In this document: in pieces, positions 17,786 to 24,748 of the stretch
Position numbering within the stretch: the first letter of the stretch is position 1
Layout of the letters: each line of letters starts with the position of its first letter
Notes under the pieces: model-generated
Told to the model about the DNA's origin: nothing
Seen by the model: only the letters and a program-made list of their open reading frames with translations
Database searches by the model: none
DNA from: Candidatus Micrarchaeota archaeon
GTDB lineage: Archaea > Micrarchaeota > Micrarchaeia > Micrarchaeales > Micrarchaeaceae
DNA: 30,570 nt
Direction of reading: 5' to 3'
Assembly: GCA_964521995.1 (NCBI GenBank)
Contig: CAZFUA010000001.1
Location: 1 to 30,570, forward strand
Program-made: the position numbers and the translations under genes

Positions 17786-18020
17786 GTAAATCACTTTTCA
17801 AAATAAGCGGACTACTTTCTCTGTTAATGTATTTATCCTTATTGGAATTCGCATGCTTTTCTGTTAAACCGTATCTTTTGTAAAGCCAACTTTGTACATT
17901 GCAAAAGATACCACATGCAAACTAGGGTGTTTCCAATCAGCCAACCATTATCGGTTATATGCAATTCTTGTATTTCTGTTATTGGTCTGTTGCGTAAAGT
18001 TTAAATACTTTGAAAAAACT

Positions 18021-18037
18021 TTATAACTGAGTTATAA
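18021..18037. promoter_or_regulatory. Perfect palindrome TTATAAC-TGA-GTTATAA overlapping the putative sufB TATA box; candidate operator
   Basis: 7-bp perfect arms with a 3-bp spacer, ending 12 nt before the sufB ATG at 18050. Confidence 0.55.
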
Positions 18038-18049
18038 TATTGTGATGTC

Positions 18050-20644
18050 ATGCCAGATTCGAATCTAGGTGCAGAAAGCGTAGTCGTTGGAGAGGAGGAG
18101 TACAAGAGGGCATACGGATTCAATGATACTTTCGAGTATAAATTCAAGACAAAGAAAGGTATTTCTGAGGATGTCGTAAGGGAGATATCGGCAATGAAGG
18201 GTGAGCCTGAGTGGATGCTGGAGAAGAGGTTAGTAGGGTACAAGCAGTTCATTAGCAAACCTACTCCCCAATGGGGGGGCAACCTGAACGACATAGACTA
18301 CAATGACATTTACTATTACCTGAAGCCGACGGACAAGAAGGGAAATACATGGGAATCGGTCCCAAAGGAGATAAAGGACACATTCGACAAGCTCGGCATA
18401 CCAGAAGCAGAAAGGAAGTTTTTTGCAGGTGCAGAGGCGCAGTACGACTCTGAGGTTGTATATTCGCACATAAGAGAGGACCTTGCAAAAGACGGAGTCA
18501 TATTCACCAGTACTGACGAGGCTGTAAAGAAATATCCCGAACTTATGAAGAAATACTTCGGCACCGTAATACCACCAACGGACAACAAGTTTGCGGCGCT
18601 GAATACTGCAGTGTGGTCTGGAGGTTCGTTCATATACCTACCAAAGGGCGTTAAGATGAAGATGCCGCTTCAGGCTTATTTCAGGATAAATGCCGAGAAA
18701 GCGGGACAGTTTGAGAGAACGCTAATCATAGCAGAGGAGGGCGCGGACGTAACGTATATTGAAGGCTGTTTTGTTGCAGGTACTAAAGTAATTACTAAGA
18801 ATGGTGAAATAAATATTGAGGATATAAATGTCGGGGAGGAGGTTTTAACGCATGATGGCACTTACAAGAGGGTATACCACACTCAAGTAAGACCGCACAC
18901 TGGTGCCTTATACGTGATAACTTACTTTGGGGATTCGACATGTACGATACAAACTACAGATGAGCACCCGTTTCTTGTTTCAAAGAGATCGAGAGAAGAA
19001 TACAAAAATACAAATTGGAGTACTGAATGGGTCAAGGCAAAGGACTTAAGAAGGCATGATTATATAGCGATACCTATAGACAGAACAGTAAAGTCAAATA
19101 ATAAGAAGAGTTTTATTATAAATTCAAAAAGAAGATGGTCTACAGTAAGTACTATTCTTGATATACAAACAGATAAGGATTTCTTCAGGCTTATAGGCTA
19201 TTATCTGTCAGAGGGTGGTATAATGAATGGGCATTATTTATCGTTTACTTTTAATAAGGACGGAACAGAATTCATTGAAGATGCTGTAATTTTGCTTGAA
19301 CGATATTTTAACAAAAAGCCCATAATCCAAAAAGAATACAATAATAGTATAAGTGTAATCTTATGCTCTACGATTGCTGCAACGTTCTTTGCAGAGCAGT
19401 TTGGAAATGGTGCGTTTCTTAAGCATGTACCAAAATGGGCAATGCTTGAAGATTCATTAAAGCAAGCAGAATTGATAAAAGGATTCTGGCGGGGAGATGG
19501 TAGCTTTATGTATAAGCAGTATGCCTGGGGGAAGAAAAGGATGTTCCGTATAAACACAATATCTAAGCGTCTTGCTGTGCAAATTAGGGATATGCTTCTA
19601 AGATGTAATATATTCAGTTCTATAAACAAGGCAACTAGACAAGGAAACAGGCATACAATGTATGTAATATATGTTGGTGGTGAGTATCTACAGCAGTTTG
19701 CATCTTTAATTGATTTCAAGATAATAATAAAGACAGGTACAAGTAGGTACGAATACCTTCAAATGCTCAATTTGCTTGGCACTCAAAAACTTGTTTCTTA
19801 TGCTAAGATAACAGAAAATTATGCATTTGTACCAATAAAAAGTATAAACAGTAAACAGGTAAGTAATCTTCCTGTCTACAATTTCAGCGTAGAAGAAAAT
19901 GAAAGTTATGTTGCAGAAAATATCGTAGTACATAACTGCACCGCTCCGATATATATGAGCTCGTCATTGCATTCCGCAGTAGTTGAACTTGTAGCGCACA
20001 AGAACGCACACATAAGGTATGTGACAATTCAGAACTGGTCCAAGAATGTTTACAACCTCGTCACTCAAAGAGCATTTGCCTATGAGAATGCGCATGTTGA
20101 ATGGATCGATGGCAACATAGGAAGCAAGCTTAACATGAAGTATCCGTCAGTATTCCTGAAGGAGAGGGGTGCAAGAGGAGAAATAATGTCAATTGCAGTT
20201 GCGGGCCCGAAACAGGTGCAGGACTCTGGGGGGAAGATATACCATCTTGCGCCGGACACCACTTCTCAGATAATATCGAAGAGCGTCTCCTCAGGTGACG
20301 GCGTCACGACATATCGCGGTTTGCTGCACATAGGCAAGAACGCCTCAAATGTGAAGTCAACAGTAAGGTGTGATGCACTGTTGCTTGATGAAGAATCCAA
20401 GACGAACACCTATCCATATATGGAAGTAAATAGGGATGACGCTACAATAACGCACGAGGCAAGCACCGGGAAGGTGGGCGAGGAACAATTATTCTATTTA
20501 ATGTCCAGGGGGCTGAGCGAAGAGGAGGCGCTCACTACAGTTGTATTGGGATTCCTTGATCCGCTCGCTAGGGCATTACCGCTTGAATATTCGCTTGAGT
20601 TAAGACGGCTTATCAAACTTGATATGTCGAATTCTGTAGGGTGA
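18050..20644 (+). CDS. sufB: Fe-S cluster assembly protein SufB containing an intein (864-aa precursor, 474-aa extein)
   Basis: LGIPEAERKF.AGA.AQYDSEVVY, FAALN.AVWSGGSF, GQFERTLI, YIEG|intein|CTAP, LH.AVVEL, QNWS.NVYNLVT.RA and HEAS.GKV.EEQLFYLMSRG. Confidence 0.97.
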   Translation: MPDSNLGAESVVVGEEEYKRAYGFNDTFEYKFKTKKGISEDVVREISAMKGEPEWMLEKRLVGYKQFISKPTPQWGGNLNDIDYNDIYYYLKPTDKKGNTWESVPKEIKDTFDKLGIPEAERKFFAGAEAQYDSEVVYSHIREDLAKDGVIFTSTDEAVKKYPELMKKYFGTVIPPTDNKFAALNTAVWSGGSFIYLPKGVKMKMPLQAYFRINAEKAGQFERTLIIAEEGADVTYIEGCFVAGTKVITKNGEINIEDINVGEEVLTHDGTYKRVYHTQVRPHTGALYVITYFGDSTCTIQTTDEHPFLVSKRSREEYKNTNWSTEWVKAKDLRRHDYIAIPIDRTVKSNNKKSFIINSKRRWSTVSTILDIQTDKDFFRLIGYYLSEGGIMNGHYLSFTFNKDGTEFIEDAVILLERYFNKKPIIQKEYNNSISVILCSTIAATFFAEQFGNGAFLKHVPKWAMLEDSLKQAELIKGFWRGDGSFMYKQYAWGKKRMFRINTISKRLAVQIRDMLLRCNIFSSINKATRQGNRHTMYVIYVGGEYLQQFASLIDFKIIIKTGTSRYEYLQMLNLLGTQKLVSYAKITENYAFVPIKSINSKQVSNLPVYNFSVEENESYVAENIVVHNCTAPIYMSSSLHSAVVELVAHKNAHIRYVTIQNWSKNVYNLVTQRAFAYENAHVEWIDGNIGSKLNMKYPSVFLKERGARGEIMSIAVAGPKQVQDSGGKIYHLAPDTTSQIISKSVSSGDGVTTYRGLLHIGKNASNVKSTVRCDALLLDEESKTNTYPYMEVNRDDATITHEASTGKVGEEQLFYLMSRGLSEEEALTTVVLGFLDPLARALPLEYSLELRRLIKLDMSNSVG
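18767..19936 (+). mobile_element. Intein with LAGLIDADG homing endonuclease (390 aa)
   Basis: Starts CFVAGTKV, block B TDEHPF, LAGLIDADG boxes LIGYYLSEGG and LIKGFWRGDGS, block F VYNFSVE, ends VVHN before Cys+1; AT-richer than the flanks. Confidence 0.96.
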
Positions 20645-20662
20645 ATTAGTTAGCACATTAAC

Positions 20663-21988
20663 TTGCACGTGTTTATTATGCACCACACAGGTGATGGATT
20701 GAAGAGTTATAAAGAGTTCATAGAAAATGCCATTAAAATGTATGAAAGTCTGCCACAGGAAACTAGCGAACTTTATAAGAGACATTATATAAACATACCC
20801 TTCGATCTGAAGAGTTTTGAAGCCAACAAGGATATGGCAACCAATGGCAGTGCCTTAAAGAGTTTGGGCGGCGAATGGATAGGTAAGACAGGCATAAAGT
20901 TTGATATGGCTCTTGGGAGCTCAGACTTCCTTGCGCAGGGCAATGAATTTATAAGAATTGAAAAGGCTGGAGATTCAGTTGTAGGTGGGGGATTGCACAG
21001 TAACAGCGAGGACAAGTATATAGCCTACATAAATGCGAAGGCCGAAAGGTATGTTATAATAGACGTGCCTGATGGGAAGTCTGCGGATATAAATATGCTA
21101 ATGCTCAACTCAAACAGACCGCTCAACGCCAAGATAATTATAAGAGCGGGTAAAAATGCAAAGTTAAACCTGTTCGAATACTACGGATCGGCTACCGATG
21201 CACCTACCTCGCTGGCCACCATACACGAGATTTATTCGGAAGAGGGATCGGATATCGAGCTTAACGCCCTGCACAATGAGGATCGTAACACATTGGGCTT
21301 GTCGTTCTGCAAAAACAGAACGGGGGAAAATTCGCACATTAGGATAAACTCTGTCTACAATGGTGCCGCTTATACAAGGGCAAGAAGTACGATAGAGGCA
21401 GACAAGACAAGAAGCAGAGTAGATGTAACTGAGGTTGTGTTTGGATCCGGGCCCCAAAGATTCGATATTGAAACCCATATAGTCAATGTAGCGCCGTACA
21501 CGAACGCAAGCCTCGAATCCAAGGCAGCGCTTACGGATACGTCTTTTTGCATACTCAAGGGTTTTGCGAAGCTGAAAAAGGGTGCGGAGAAGGCCAGATC
21601 CTACGTGCATGAAAGGGGAATACTGCTTGACAAAGGCGCGAAGATAGACGGGCTTCCCGATATGTCGGTAGACGAGAACGACGTAAAGGCCACTCATTCT
21701 TCGGCAACCGCACCGGTGGATCCCGAGTCCGTTTTCTATTTGATGTCGAAGGGCATAGACGAAATAGGAGTAAGGAGGCTTCTCGTTACAGGATTCTTCG
21801 CGAGCTGCCTGTCAAAATTCCATAACGACATAATGAAGGGATTGTCAATGTCATTAATAAACAGCAAACTGCAAGACAAAATTTATGGTGCCATACCCAA
21901 CATGGACATGAGGAACATGTGGATTGGGATATCCGATTCAGCGGATATTGACATGTTTAAGGGCCATTATAAATATAGGAAATCTTAG
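20663..21988 (+). CDS. sufD: SufD-like Fe-S assembly protein
   Basis: Beta-helix SufB/D-type C-terminal half: LLD.GAK.DGLPDM.VDE.DVKATH.SAT..VD.E..FYLMSKG. Start uncertain (TTG 20663 or ATG 20678). Confidence 0.88.
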   Translation: MHVFIMHHTGDGLKSYKEFIENAIKMYESLPQETSELYKRHYINIPFDLKSFEANKDMATNGSALKSLGGEWIGKTGIKFDMALGSSDFLAQGNEFIRIEKAGDSVVGGGLHSNSEDKYIAYINAKAERYVIIDVPDGKSADINMLMLNSNRPLNAKIIIRAGKNAKLNLFEYYGSATDAPTSLATIHEIYSEEGSDIELNALHNEDRNTLGLSFCKNRTGENSHIRINSVYNGAAYTRARSTIEADKTRSRVDVTEVVFGSGPQRFDIETHIVNVAPYTNASLESKAALTDTSFCILKGFAKLKKGAEKARSYVHERGILLDKGAKIDGLPDMSVDENDVKATHSSATAPVDPESVFYLMSKGIDEIGVRRLLVTGFFASCLSKFHNDIMKGLSMSLINSKLQDKIYGAIPNMDMRNMWIGISDSADIDMFKGHYKYRKS

Positions 21989-21997
21989 GTAGTGAAT

Positions 21998-22309
21998 ATG
22001 GTTACAAACTACGAGAGGGTGATGAAGTTCTTTATCCCTGCATTCAGGTTGAAGGCTGCCAAGATGATGGTAAATGAATACGGGATAAGGCAACAGCAAG
22101 CTGCGGTCATGCTTGGTACGACGCAGGCCGCGATAAGCAAGTATCTGAGCGGCAATTCGGACAAATTTAGGGATGTTAACATCGATGAGAACTCATTGAA
22201 GATGTTTGTAGAGAAAATGAATTCAAAGGATGAGGAAAATGCACAAAGGATAATGTGCACGATGTGCCAGAGCAACAAGAAATTCAATTGTACGTTTATA
22301 GTCAGATAG
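21998..22309 (+). CDS. HTH transcriptional regulator (COG2522-like) with C-terminal Cys cluster
   Basis: FIPAFR...AK.MV.EYG.RQQQAA.MLGTTQAAISKYLSG helix-turn-helix; tail CTMCQSNKKFNC. Confidence 0.85.
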   Translation: MVTNYERVMKFFIPAFRLKAAKMMVNEYGIRQQQAAVMLGTTQAAISKYLSGNSDKFRDVNIDENSLKMFVEKMNSKDEENAQRIMCTMCQSNKKFNCTFIVR

Positions 22310-22316
22310 TGATTTG

Positions 22317-23051
22317 ATGATATTGGAAATAAAGGACCTGAACGTCAATGTTGAGGGAAAACACATAATAAAGGGAATAAATCTGAACGTAAAGCAGGGA
22401 GAAACGCATGTAATAATGGGCCCGAATGGGTCTGGGAAAAGCACACTTGCAAGAACCATAATGGGGCATCCGAAATCCGTAGTTACAGGAGGAGATATAC
22501 TTGTCGACGGAAATAGCATATTGGGCATGACCGCCGACAAAAGGGCAAAACTCGGGCTCTTTTTGCAGTTTCAGAACCCCGTGGAGGTTGAGGGTGTTGG
22601 ATTTATAAACTTCCTTCACCTGGCAAGGCAGTCTTACGGGGAAACCGCACAAAGCACAAAGGAGTTCATGAAGGATATAAAGGCAAACATAAACGAACTC
22701 AAAATGGGCGAGGATTTTCTGGGCAGGTCCCTCAATCAAGGATTTTCAGGTGGGGAGAAGAAAAAGGCGGAGGTGCTTCAGCTGTCAATACTTAAACCAA
22801 AGATAGCAATCCTTGACGAACCAGATTCAGGGTTGGACATAGATGCAATAAGGACCGTGTCCGAGGCCGTGAACAACATATCGAGCAAAAGCAACATGGG
22901 GCTTCTGATAATCACGCACTACAGCAGGATACTTTCCTACATAAAACCACAGTTTGTACATGTAATGGCAGATGGCAGGATAGTCGATGAGGGAGGACAG
23001 GAACTTATAGAAAAGCTTGAAAAGGATGGATACGATTCCTACTTGAAGTAG
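22317..23051 (+). CDS. sufC: Fe-S cluster assembly ATPase SufC
   Basis: GPNGSGKST, FLQFQ.PVE..GV, R.LN.GFSGGEKKK.E, LDEPDSGLD.DA and ITHY.RIL.YIKP.FVH. Confidence 0.97.
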   Translation: MILEIKDLNVNVEGKHIIKGINLNVKQGETHVIMGPNGSGKSTLARTIMGHPKSVVTGGDILVDGNSILGMTADKRAKLGLFLQFQNPVEVEGVGFINFLHLARQSYGETAQSTKEFMKDIKANINELKMGEDFLGRSLNQGFSGGEKKKAEVLQLSILKPKIAILDEPDSGLDIDAIRTVSEAVNNISSKSNMGLLIITHYSRILSYIKPQFVHVMADGRIVDEGGQELIEKLEKDGYDSYLK

Positions 23052-23073
23052 GGCTTTTATTTCAGAAGATATT

Positions 23074-24339
23074 ATGGTGGCCCATGTGCAAGAGCTTGGA
23101 TTCGATGTGAACTCCATAAGGAGAGATTTTCCCATTATGGAAACCAGCATGAATGGCAAGCGGCTAGTATACCTGGACAATGCAGCCACATCGCAGAAAC
23201 CAAAGCAGGTACTGGATGCGATTGATGATTACTACAGGAATTACAACGCGAACATACATCGAGGCATATACAAAATAGCTGAAAAGGCCACAGAAAAGTA
23301 TGTAGAATCAAAGGTCAAAGTTGCAGAACTGATAAATGCGTCCTCGATGCGGGAAATCGTGTACGTGAGGAACACAACCGAAGCCATAAACATTGTGGCG
23401 TTGTCGTGGGGCGAGGATAATATAGGCAAGGGTGACCATATACTTATATCAGAGATGGAGCACCACAGCAATATGGTGCCGTGGATGCTGCTTGCAAAAA
23501 GGAAAGGGGCGGTGCTGGACTACATAAACGTGGATGTAAACACGTACAAACTCGACATGGACAGCCTTGACGACATGCTTGGGAAAAACCCGAAAATAGT
23601 CGCAGTAACACAGGCATCGAATGTGCTCGGAACGATAAATGACGTGAAAGACATAGCCAAAAAAGCGCATAGGCAAGGTGCGGTAGTGCTCGTAGACGGC
23701 GCACAGTCAACTCCGCATATGAGCGTGGATGTAAAGGATATTGGTTCTGACTTCTACGCCTTTTCCGCGCACAAGATGCTCGGACCCACAGGGATAGGGG
23801 TACTGCAGGCACGGGAGGAGCTTTTAAACAGCATGGAGCCGGTATTTGGGGGAGGTGACATGATAAAAAGCGTAAGATATGATTCTTACTCGTGGAACGA
23901 CCTGCCATGGAAATTTGAGGCTGGAACACCGGATATATCAGGAGCCATAGGCTTCAGCGCCGCAATAGATTATCTCAATAAAATAGGGATGGAAAACATA
24001 AGAAACCACGAGAAAAGGCTTGCAGAATACGCATTGGATAGGTTGTCAGGCATAAATGAGGTTACAGTTTACGGACCTGATAAAAAGGACATTGAGGGCA
24101 GGGCGGGCGTTGTTTCGTTCAGTATAGACAAAGTGCATTCACATGATGTGGCGCAGATATTTGATTCGGAGGGAATAGCCATAAGGGCAGGCCATCACTG
24201 CGCGATGCCTTTGGTGACCCAAAAGTTAGGCATTTCCGCATTGTCGAGAATGAGCTTTTACATATACAACAAGGAATCAGAAATAGATGCCGCGGCAGTG
24301 GCAATAGACAAAGTGAAGAAAATATTTAAGGTAGGATGA
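23074..24339 (+). CDS. sufS: Group II cysteine desulfurase SufS
   Basis: YLDNAATSQKP, NIHRG, MEHHSN.VPW, DGAQS.PH, FSAHKM.GPTG (PLP Lys), EAGTP and RAGHHCA (catalytic Cys). Confidence 0.97.
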   Translation: MVAHVQELGFDVNSIRRDFPIMETSMNGKRLVYLDNAATSQKPKQVLDAIDDYYRNYNANIHRGIYKIAEKATEKYVESKVKVAELINASSMREIVYVRNTTEAINIVALSWGEDNIGKGDHILISEMEHHSNMVPWMLLAKRKGAVLDYINVDVNTYKLDMDSLDDMLGKNPKIVAVTQASNVLGTINDVKDIAKKAHRQGAVVLVDGAQSTPHMSVDVKDIGSDFYAFSAHKMLGPTGIGVLQAREELLNSMEPVFGGGDMIKSVRYDSYSWNDLPWKFEAGTPDISGAIGFSAAIDYLNKIGMENIRNHEKRLAEYALDRLSGINEVTVYGPDKKDIEGRAGVVSFSIDKVHSHDVAQIFDSEGIAIRAGHHCAMPLVTQKLGISALSRMSFYIYNKESEIDAAAVAIDKVKKIFKVG

Positions 24340-24343
24340 TATT

Positions 24344-24748
24344 TTGCCGATAGATATTTATGCAGAGGAGATAATAGCGCACTATGAAAAACCGCACAAC
24401 AAAGGGGAGATAAGCGATCCAAGCACCAGCATGCACGAGAACAATCCACTGTGCGGAGATGACATAACTGTTTATCTTAACATAAAGGACAATATTATAA
24501 CTGATGTAAAATTCGACGGTTCAGGATGTGCAATAAGCATGGCCTCCGCAAGCATGCTTACGGACTTCATAAAAGGGAAAAGCCTTAGTGACATAGAAGA
24601 GACGGGGCTGAAAACGATAATAGATCTTTTAGGGATAGATCCAGGTCCTGCAAGATTGAAGTGCGCGACCTTGTCTTTGAAAACAGTGAAGGAGGCATGC
24701 TTCAGGTACCAGCACAAGAACGTGGATAAGGACACGAAGGACTTATAG
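24344..24748 (+). CDS. sufU: SufU/IscU-like sulfur-transfer or scaffold protein
   Basis: HYEKPHNKG, NPLCGD, GCAIS.AS.S and RLKCA (three Cys plus Asp); TTG start. Confidence 0.93.
   Translation: MPIDIYAEEIIAHYEKPHNKGEISDPSTSMHENNPLCGDDITVYLNIKDNIITDVKFDGSGCAISMASASMLTDFIKGKSLSDIEETGLKTIIDLLGIDPGPARLKCATLSLKTVKEACFRYQHKNVDKDTKDL

Follow-up and report, generated by a model that had tools for sequence, protein, structure and literature searches.

The window analysed here, a stretch of 30,570 nt, belongs to the 0.95 Mb genome (953,329 bp) of a tiny acid-mine archaeon of the Micrarchaeota, which lives in oxic or micro-oxic mine drainage. It contains a suf operon in the order sufB(intein)-sufD-HTH-sufC-sufS-sufU, in which HTH denotes the gene of a predicted regulator. 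The sufU-type gene closes the operon, and the neighbour beyond lies on the opposite strand. The features are, with their evidence in parentheses:

17994-18007, + strand: BRE/TATA promoter element of the suf operon (sequence and relatives)
18021-18037, no strand: candidate operator palindrome (sequence, genome uniqueness, conservation in relatives)
18050-20644, + strand: sufB with an intein at about 18767-19936 (TIGR01980, split into two matches; N- and C-terminal intein models)
20663-21988, + strand: sufD (SUFBD_core 7.7e-46; TIGR01981 1.8e-48)
21998-22309, + strand: predicted regulator gene, 103-aa helical HTH protein (ORF, homologue starts, conserved residues)
22314-23051, + strand: sufC, ABC ATPase (TIGR01978, 310.5 bits)
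23074-24339, + strand: sufS, cysteine desulfurase (ORF; kept 3′ of sufC in relatives)
24344-24748, + strand: sufU-type scaffold/sulfur acceptor (NifU_N 2.3e-28)

SufB, intein included, matched TIGR01980 with 676 bits. The HTH gene starts 9 nt past the sufD stop (21988) and ends 4–7 nt ahead of the sufC start (22314/22317), in agreement with a preliminary description of this DNA that had placed a 103-aa HTH protein with a CxxC-x7-C end tightly between the two genes. Its ORF could begin at 21992 or 21998 and runs to 22309 on the + strand; homologues begin at the ATG at 21998, which gives a length of 103 aa. The C-terminus reads CTMCQSNKKFNC followed by TFIVR.

The protein scored just below the gathering threshold of the Pfam family HTH_3 (PF01381; 22.2 bits, E 1.5e-4, threshold 23 bits), and its relatives scored above it (P0064, 27.9; P0117, 28.0; P0185, 28.3 bits). 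The AF2 model (pLDDT 90.9) consists of six helices, and the best matches in a structure search were the three-helix HTH domains of DeoR/SorC/LsrR, with Z values of only 4.3–5.4. The CxxC falls inside a predicted helix of this model, a placement that is diagnostic neither for a Zn site nor for a thiol switch. Across homologues of 25–73% identity, eight residues are invariant (P14, Q43, A44, S47, K48, C87, C90 and C98); the three cysteines and the fixed x7 spacing are kept in all 74 full-length homologues, 48 of which possess no other cysteine. More distant relatives carry an additional invariant N-terminal cysteine at the position of Y5 in the window protein. Natural tandem fusions of two such modules (226–257 aa) also exist and fit a dimeric unit.

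The N-terminal half, i.e., helix 1 and the HTH with the motif LG-TQAA-SKY, is common to small archaeal HTH_3 (XRE/Cro-like) proteins annotated as “predicted transcriptional regulators”. One of these is a paralogue in the same genome, adjoining a radical-SAM gene, which has the same HTH half but none of the cysteines. Therefore, members of the family do not all carry the Cys tail. The preliminary description had cautioned that they might, but the tail constitutes an add-on module that the DNA-binding half does not need in order to fold. The model of MqsA-type antitoxins (TIGR03830) reached 18.1 bits against a curated cut-off of 61.8 and covered the HTH part only; since, moreover, MqsA has its CxxCG zinc ribbon at the N-terminus and the cysteines here are C-terminal, this identity was ruled out.

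Upstream of sufB, the perfect 17-mer TTATAAC-TGA-GTTATAA occupies exactly positions 18021–18037, as initially reported for the pattern TTATAAC-N3-GTTATAA, and can be read more fully as a perfect 8-N1-8 palindrome, TTATAACT-G-AGTTATAA. It is present in a single copy in the 953,329-bp genome (0.006 expected), as is its 5+5 core ATAAC-N3-GTTAT (1.2 expected). The palindrome had been thought to overlap the TATA-like element of sufB, and it does hold TATA-like TTATAA hexamers; the conserved promoter element, however, lies upstream of it. This element consists of a BRE-like purine stretch, AAAG, and the TATA box TTTAAATA (18000–18007), which ends 13 nt before the palindrome, and most related loci likewise have an AAGG/AAAG plus TTTAAATA-type element ahead of the palindrome. 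The distance from the start of the TATA box to the start of the palindrome core is 22 nt in the window and most commonly 21–27 nt in relatives. In a simple scan this spacing varied, and the exact geometry differs between lineages. Judged from the TATA position, transcription is predicted to start at about 18029–18031, at the palindrome centre. The conserved BRE/TATA thus puts the candidate operator downstream of TATA and over the predicted start site, a position that accords with RNA polymerase being excluded, rather than with the blocking of TBP/TFB access that had been proposed at first. Across 76 species, the bases of the core do not vary and no compensatory changes occur, and as RNA the palindrome would form only a weak hairpin (−2.6 kcal/mol, z −0.32); together, these features point to protein–DNA recognition.

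Comparison of 80 species-representative Micrarchaeota loci, in which related genomes are non-independent samples, showed that the regulator gene is suf-linked in 74. It lies inside the operon in 38 loci (sufB-sufD-reg-sufC-sufS(-sufU)) and comes first in 36 (reg-sufB-sufD-sufC-sufS). Searching for TATAAC-N3-GTTATA with at most one mismatch, we found the site 14–68 nt ahead of whichever gene opens the operon, sufB or the regulator, in 76 of the 80 loci, overlapping the start codon in some of them; elsewhere, only two matches occurred in 714 kb. Exact sites numbered 141 in 85 of the 101 genomes of the order, compared with 16 for a reversed control, and none was present in the 10 genomes in which no regulator was detected. 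The four of these that were examined all retain sufB without the palindrome, one of them with a decayed half-site. Both a recurring suf neighbourhood and a site that tracks the regulator, which the preliminary description had put forward as checks on the pairing, are therefore found.

Further sites extend this picture. In genus g26, in which the regulator gene is not linked to suf, exact sites lie in front of the regulator gene itself, sufB, sufS, a Fe/Mn-SOD gene and a radical-SAM gene; other genomes have second sites ahead of ZIP-family transporters and of that radical-SAM gene. Among more distant Micrarchaeia, the site is located either between the genes for a ferredoxin and a NifS-like protein or before regulator-desulfurase-IscU. 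The palindrome is thus a conserved element at the promoter of the regulator's own gene and co-occurs with the regulator. These sequence comparisons make it highly likely that the regulator/operator pair controls suf.

By sequence, the protein belongs with neither of the bacterial regulators SufR and IscR. The SufR model TIGR02702 did not match its 105-aa translation at E<=0.1, and the GRP motif of the SufR AT-hook is absent from the 103-aa protein, which is also too short; identity with SufR was therefore rejected. The same applies to IscR/Rrf2, as PF02082 gave no match in the regulator. Neither model found a match in the whole assembly (87.5% complete), while control genomes responded to both (14 of 14 for PF02082). 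This extends the earlier remark that no SufR or IscR gene is visible in the window, and it bears out the view of the regulator as unrelated to SufR. Regulator and palindrome are very probably an archaeal, non-homologous counterpart of SufR and IscR.

SufR, known from cyanobacteria, mycobacteria (Rv1460) and Streptomyces (COG2345/TIGR02702), binds a [4Fe-4S] cluster on three Cys and one Glu, and its holo form represses (PMC6034842; bioRxiv 10.64898/2025.12.26.696629). The likeness to the system described here, in which the role of the regulator is predicted, lies in an autoregulated repressor encoded with suf, in its three conserved cysteines and in its palindromic site at the suf promoter. However, SufR is longer, with a structural alignment over 212 residues (bioRxiv 10.64898/2025.12.26.696629) against 103 aa; it combines a winged HTH, an AT-hook and a separate sensory domain instead of an HTH_3-like helical fold with a short Cys tail; and its operator is CAAC-N6-GTTG rather than TATAAC-N3-GTTATA. 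With IscR the protein would share small size, dimeric state, a three-Cys-plus-one site for its putative cluster, feedback through cluster occupancy and a regulon beyond the assembly operon, but the fold of IscR is the Rrf2 winged helix, and its cluster is a [2Fe-2S] bound by Cys3His. In some other archaea, putative COG2345 SufR homologues have been noted upstream of suf (bioRxiv 10.64898/2025.12.26.696629), and archaea may use both kinds of regulator, SufR-type and Cys-tailed HTH.

The reading that we favour, with moderate confidence, is that the 103-aa protein is a dedicated, negatively autoregulated suf repressor with a cluster-sensing, start-site-blocking mechanism. A regulator dimer would bind the 17-bp palindrome tTATAACT-N-AGTTATAa, 13 nt past the TATA box. 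With the operator occupied, TBP/TFB could still bind, and recruitment of RNA polymerase or initiation would be blocked. The regulator is encoded within the operon (sufB-sufD-reg-sufC-sufS-sufU); by repressing the sufB promoter it would therefore also reduce its own synthesis, a built-in negative feedback. The C-terminal CxxC-x7-C would be the sensor, for which an Fe–S cluster made by the SUF machinery appears the most probable ligand; that the cysteines bind such a cluster we judge to have even chances or slightly better. A fourth ligand would be a non-Cys residue in the window protein and the N-terminal Cys in the more distant relatives. The cluster-bound form would be the one that binds DNA, and cluster loss upon high Fe–S demand, iron shortage or oxidants would free the operator and induce suf.

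The signal might instead be read by the thiols themselves. In such a thiol/disulfide switch, which we consider unlikely, the reduced form would bind the operator without any cluster, and oxidation of the CxxC, possibly involving C98, would induce suf and SOD. The CxxC motif, the operator at the superoxide dismutase gene where the regulator is unlinked, the oxidant tolerance of SUF as an Fe–S system and the oxic or micro-oxic mine-drainage habitat all accord with it. However, a two-Cys mechanism leaves unexplained why the third Cys and its spacing are invariant and why distant relatives have a fourth, and the targets are mostly genes for Fe–S assembly and Fe–S proteins (sufB, sufS, NifS/IscU, ferredoxin, radical SAM) rather than general antioxidant genes. 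Zn(II) or mononuclear Fe(II) on the cysteines is a quite improbable ligand in our estimate, whether as a structural ion, with the signal elsewhere or simple autoregulation, or in a divalent-metal sensor. Cys3/Cys4 sites of small DNA-binding proteins are often Zn sites, and the ZIP-family transporters that recur behind second operators would fit a Zn or Fe(II) sensor. But it is hard to see why a Zn sensor should be coupled to suf, NifS/IscU and ferredoxin genes in several independent arrangements, and the Cys-less paralogue retains the same HTH half, so the tail is not required for that half to fold.

The direction of regulation is likewise open to a second reading, namely that the bound regulator activates suf or works both ways depending on its state. 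IscR represses one promoter and activates another, and the distance between operator and TATA differs between lineages. Yet the site lies downstream of TATA, over or beside the predicted start, in both gene orders, and in some loci reaches the start codon; classical archaeal repressor sites lie over or near the start, and activator sites usually upstream of BRE/TATA. Positive autoregulation of an assembly system would also lack homeostatic logic. We infer that the protein is likely a repressor rather than an activator, and hold the activating or dual mode to be very improbable. It is hardly credible that the palindrome has no connection with the HTH protein and arose by chance or serves as a promoter element or RNA hairpin: its A+T-rich, TATA-like composition would allow this, but the single genomic copy, the invariant core without compensatory changes, the weak RNA hairpin, the separate BRE/TATA upstream and the absence of exact sites from the genomes in which no regulator was detected, of which the four examined keep sufB, all argue against it.

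Among archaeal regulators, SurR of Pyrococcus and Thermococcus uses a CxxC redox switch to govern DNA binding. Its CxxC sits inside the DNA-binding domain of an ArsR-type double winged-helix protein, and its targets are hydrogenase and sulfur-response genes, not Fe–S assembly; apart from the CxxC, fold and target genes thus differ from those here. The repressors MDR1, LrpA, Phr and NrpR bind downstream of BRE/TATA over the start and block recruitment of RNA polymerase while TBP/TFB stay bound. They resemble the present system in operator position but come from other families (DtxR, Lrp, ArsR-like, NrpR) and answer to different signals.

A profile search at E<=0.001 retrieved 2046 library proteins. 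They span at least Micrarchaeota and further DPANN lineages; the regulator's Atlas neighbours are archaeal HTH_3 clusters from several phyla. In the searchable literature we found neither a described function for members of the small archaeal HTH_3 family nor a description of the present regulator/operator system. Nor did we find there a described or tested dedicated regulator of archaeal Fe–S assembly, as the searchable reviews and papers name only the bacterial IscR, SufR, RirA and RisR; the exception is a 2025 preprint proposing SufR homologues in a few archaea (bioRxiv 10.64898/2025.12.26.696629). Tentatively, and with chances somewhat below even, this large family of small HTH proteins, seen mainly in archaea, could be the archaeal master sensor of Fe–S cluster status. 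The CxxC-x7-C and a ligand in the N-terminal helix, which is Cys in most lineages but another residue in Micrarchaeales, would then hold the cluster, tie the protein ends together and license binding to TAAC-N-GTTA-type palindromes before SUF, NifS/IscU-type, ferredoxin, radical-SAM, SOD and metal-transporter genes.

These results suggest that a much smaller and different protein takes the place of SufR in a whole order of DPANN archaea. The predicted operator is clean: a single 103-aa protein and a single 17-bp site make the system readily testable. The regulator occurs in three arrangements, inside the operon, first in it, or unlinked with a multi-gene regulon, and these, along with lineages that have neither regulator nor operator, constitute a natural series for the rewiring of a feedback circuit. 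If the cysteines do bind a cluster, the protein would represent a new minimal Fe–S sensor fold and provide a handle on the iron and oxidant physiology of archaea that are still largely uncultivated.

The suf genes of the window form a compact row on one strand, and the gene that follows the row lies on the opposite strand:

18050-24748, plus strand: sufB, sufD, a small HTH gene, sufC, sufS and a NifU_N/SufU-type gene
18767-19936, plus strand: intein within sufB, with N- and C-terminal splicing motifs

The small HTH gene encodes the putative regulator. It begins with the ATG at 21998, a start shared by all homologues, 9 nt past sufD, and ends 4-7 nt ahead of sufC. The resulting ORF agrees with the preliminary description, which had placed a 103-aa HTH protein ending in CxxC-x7-C between sufD and sufC. 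The intein-split sufB product has 864 aa. Among relatives the intein is patchy (e.g., loci L033, L034, L036, L048, L051, L056, L061, L084 and L086), sufB measuring ~2.5-2.6 kb with it vs 1.4 kb without; sufB of L063 has a further insert of ~1 kb elsewhere, close to query residue 788. DNA of the window is contained in mine-drainage and hot-spring metagenomes, and the names given to homologues point to Micrarchaeota as its source.

Of the 201 genomes of the phylum that we searched, those with full-length relatives of the regulator include 45 of 56 in the window's family (f1) and 32 of 35 in its sister family (f2). All f1 loci that were inspected are arranged sufB-sufD-regulator-sufC-sufS (internal type), and f2 loci have the order regulator-sufB-sufD-sufC (leading type). 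Among the best 80 species-representative loci from GTDB genomes, a set that shares genomes with the 201-genome search, so that the two counts are not independent, 38 show the internal and 36 the leading order. A recurring suf neighbourhood, the check proposed in the preliminary description, is therefore present in 74 of the 80 loci, and the regulator is tied to suf. Two of the other six are cut after sufC-sufS-sufU, and four contain the regulator with no suf genes in the fetched stretch. The unpublished genomes G029 (locus L004) and G198 are counted in the 201-genome search and in the 101-genome tally given below; no claim depends on either alone. Five contigs with suf-regulator regions typical of Micrarchaeota (L100, L135, L111, L125 and L134) sit in MAGs labelled Acidiferrales bacterium, Saccharimonadales bacterium or Marsarchaeota, which is likely due to mis-binning or mislabelling.

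The strongest result of the analysis is the tie between the regulator and the palindrome ahead of the operon. TTATAAC-N3-GTTATAA lies exactly at 18021-18037, as originally described, and forms a perfect 8-N1-8 palindrome of 17 nt that occurs once in the 953-kb assembly (0.006 expected); its 5+5 core also occurs only once. With one mismatch allowed, 76 of the 80 loci contain TATAAC-N3-GTTATA 14-68 nt ahead of whichever gene opens the operon; the 714 kb of this set contain only two other sites. The gene behind the site is sufB in 37 loci with an internal regulator and the regulator gene itself in 35 leading-type loci; the remaining four have a solitary regulator or a contig that stops ahead of the sufB start. 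Contigs stopping at this point also explain three of the four misses, and the fourth (L157) has the site, with an unresolvable start codon. Across the order, 141 exact sites were distributed over 85 of 101 genomes, compared with 16 matches for a reversed control pattern.

The comparison of genomes with and without the regulator, as suggested in the preliminary description, pointed in the same direction: none of the 10 genomes without a detected regulator (G008, G057, G073, G100, G107, G138, G159, G019, G041 and G155) contains an exact site, the absence of the regulator from G100, G107 and G019 being confirmed by a profile search as well. Four of the 10 genomes were inspected, and all keep sufB and lack the palindrome upstream of it. 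G033 seemed an exception, with a site and no regulator by single-protein search, until the profile search revealed a divergent regulator beside suf. Genus g2 yielded no exact matches because its left half-site is degenerate, though the regulator is kept. Upstream of sufB in L263 (G107:C9), only the left half-site TATAAC is present at the expected place below a TATA-like box, followed by unrelated bases, and looks like a decaying operator. Some promoters contain two overlapping or adjacent palindromes (L101, at -42 and -27 from sufB; G205:C29:47662-47689), which may represent double operators.

The upstream region of sufB contains two further conserved elements:

17994-18007, plus strand: BRE/TATA element, conserved in relatives
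within 17950-17995: second conserved element, with GCAA at 17968-17971 and TTGTA at 17975-17979

The first consists of purine-rich AAGG/AAAG followed by TTTAAATA, an archaeal-type BRE/TATA conserved upstream of the palindrome. The TATA start most often precedes the core start of the palindrome by 21-27 nt; the value for the window is 22 nt. The centre of an archaeal TATA box lies ~26-27 nt ahead of the start site; transcription in the window is therefore predicted to start at ~18030, the centre of the palindrome. Thus, the operator would cover the start site, not the TATA box as initially proposed, and this is the usual position for archaeal repressors that exclude RNA polymerase. Reading the palindrome itself as the TATA box was rejected, given the separate conserved BRE/TATA upstream and a start that would then fall ~25 nt downstream of the palindrome, within sufB. 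An RNA hairpin was discarded, too: folding is weak (-2.6 kcal/mol, z -0.32), and in related loci the core bases are invariant rather than covarying. Both features argue for the palindrome as the DNA site of a protein.

In the leading-type loci L132, L156, L160, L162, L165 and L169, the right half of the palindrome reaches the start codon of the regulator gene, the core beginning 14 nt before the ATG; transcripts of these loci would therefore be leaderless or nearly so. The second element, GCAA-N4-6-TTGTA, lies 35-45 nt farther upstream than the TATA box and is often partnered by a downstream TTGC(A), yielding an inverted repeat with ~25 nt spacing. TTGTA was found in 18 of 37 internal-type vs 7 of 38 leading-type loci. 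It could be bound by a second factor or form part of the divergent promoter.

Sites beyond the suf operon extend the set of putative targets. In genomes of genus g26, the regulator gene is unlinked from suf and stands alone, and exact sites (six in G024, five in G171, none for the control) precede the regulator gene, sufB, sufS, an Fe/Mn superoxide dismutase gene and a radical-SAM gene with an HMPTM-type zinc ribbon. Other f2 genomes have recurrent second sites, which precede the same radical-SAM gene (six genomes in total) or a membrane protein matching the ZIP metal-transporter family, seen in five genomes (against Pfam, one above cut-off, one weak and two without match). One more distant Micrarchaeia genome has the site in the interval separating a 4Fe-4S ferredoxin gene from a NifS-like desulfurase gene, and in another it overlaps the start codon of a regulator-desulfurase-IscU row. 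What the site-bearing genes share is a link to Fe-S assembly and Fe-S proteins, to the supply of metals and to defence against oxidants.

The regulator itself gave only a marginal HTH_3 match in Pfam and no useful match in NCBIfam. Across 36 relatives at 25-73% identity, P14, Q43, A44, S47 and K48 in the HTH half and C87, C90 and C98 are invariant. The motif CxxC-x7(8)-C is kept in all 74 full-length species-level proteins, 48 of which have no other cysteines. The AlphaFold2 model (pLDDT 90.9) is all-helical, with a long helix 1, the HTH, a final helix bearing C87 and C90, and a tail with C98. A Foldseek search against the PDB returned nothing at E≤0.001, and the VIA-align wide search returned only three-helix HTH domains (Z ≤5.4), none covering the whole fold or the Cys-bearing half, which is no proof of a new fold. 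The HTH half resembles DeoR/SorC-type domains (Z ~5), and a PDB sequence search likewise gave HTH matches only (HipB, AdcR; E ~1e-3). The window's own genome encodes, on its contig 4 (locus L002), a paralogue without cysteines, next to the radical-SAM gene:

L002 1486-1830, plus strand: Cys-less paralogue, 114 aa, directly upstream of the radical-SAM gene
L002 1947-3164, plus strand: radical-SAM gene with HMPTM-type zinc ribbon; in other genomes its promoter carries the suf-type palindrome

Across the order, the majority of genomes encode both paralogues. Since the Cys-less protein shares the N-terminal half of the regulator, the Cys tail is a specific add-on, which answers the earlier caveat that such tails might be general in the family.

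With a profile, 2046 matches (E≤0.001) were obtained among 1.8 billion representative proteins, and 100 of the best 148 contain CxxC-x5-11-C. The annotation of all named members goes no further than hypothetical protein or generic HTH protein, and the Atlas neighbours of a regulator homologue were generic archaeal HTH_3 clusters only. Members of a more distant subgroup all keep four Cys and one Glu. Their additional Cys, in an N-terminal PCE motif, aligns with Y5 of the window protein, suggesting that the fourth ligand comes from the beginning of helix 1. In about 27 of 80 metagenome loci of this subgroup, the fetched stretch includes NifS/IscU-type, sufCBD(S) or sufS-sufU genes, in most cases directly adjacent. 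The commonest immediate downstream neighbour is a cysteine desulfurase (9/68), others including SufC-type ABC ATPases (4/68) and FeS_assembly_P (2/68); many loci have no Fe-S assembly link. Two complete HTH-Cys modules are naturally fused in P0066, P0102 and P0136 (226-257 aa), which fits action as a dimer, and the 4162-aa protein P0062 has 15 matching stretches.

Three roles may be considered for the cysteines. As a CxxC thiol switch, a possible reading, they would account for the superoxide dismutase gene among the site-bearing genes; a Zn/Fe(II) site, likewise possible, would account for the ZIP transporters. Cys3(+1) patterns are typical of labile sensor clusters, such as those of IscR and NsrR. 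This pattern, the target genes and the logic of placing a sole Fe-S assembly system under negative feedback favour a regulator that would bind DNA when carrying an Fe-S cluster and release the DNA upon cluster loss. We infer that its DNA binding would be set by cluster occupancy.

The Cys3(+1) pattern of a labile sensor cluster is also described for SufR (bioRxiv 10.64898/2025.12.26.696629). SufR and IscR are similar in function to what is proposed here, yet they are, as initially claimed for SufR, unrelated proteins: neither model matched the regulator or anything else in the assembly (87.5% complete). Our literature search, with most subscription journals outside its coverage, found no description of the regulator protein. 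The same 2025 preprint also describes certain other archaea with putative SufR homologues of COG2345 ahead of suf; the regulator would therefore not be the sole archaeal solution.
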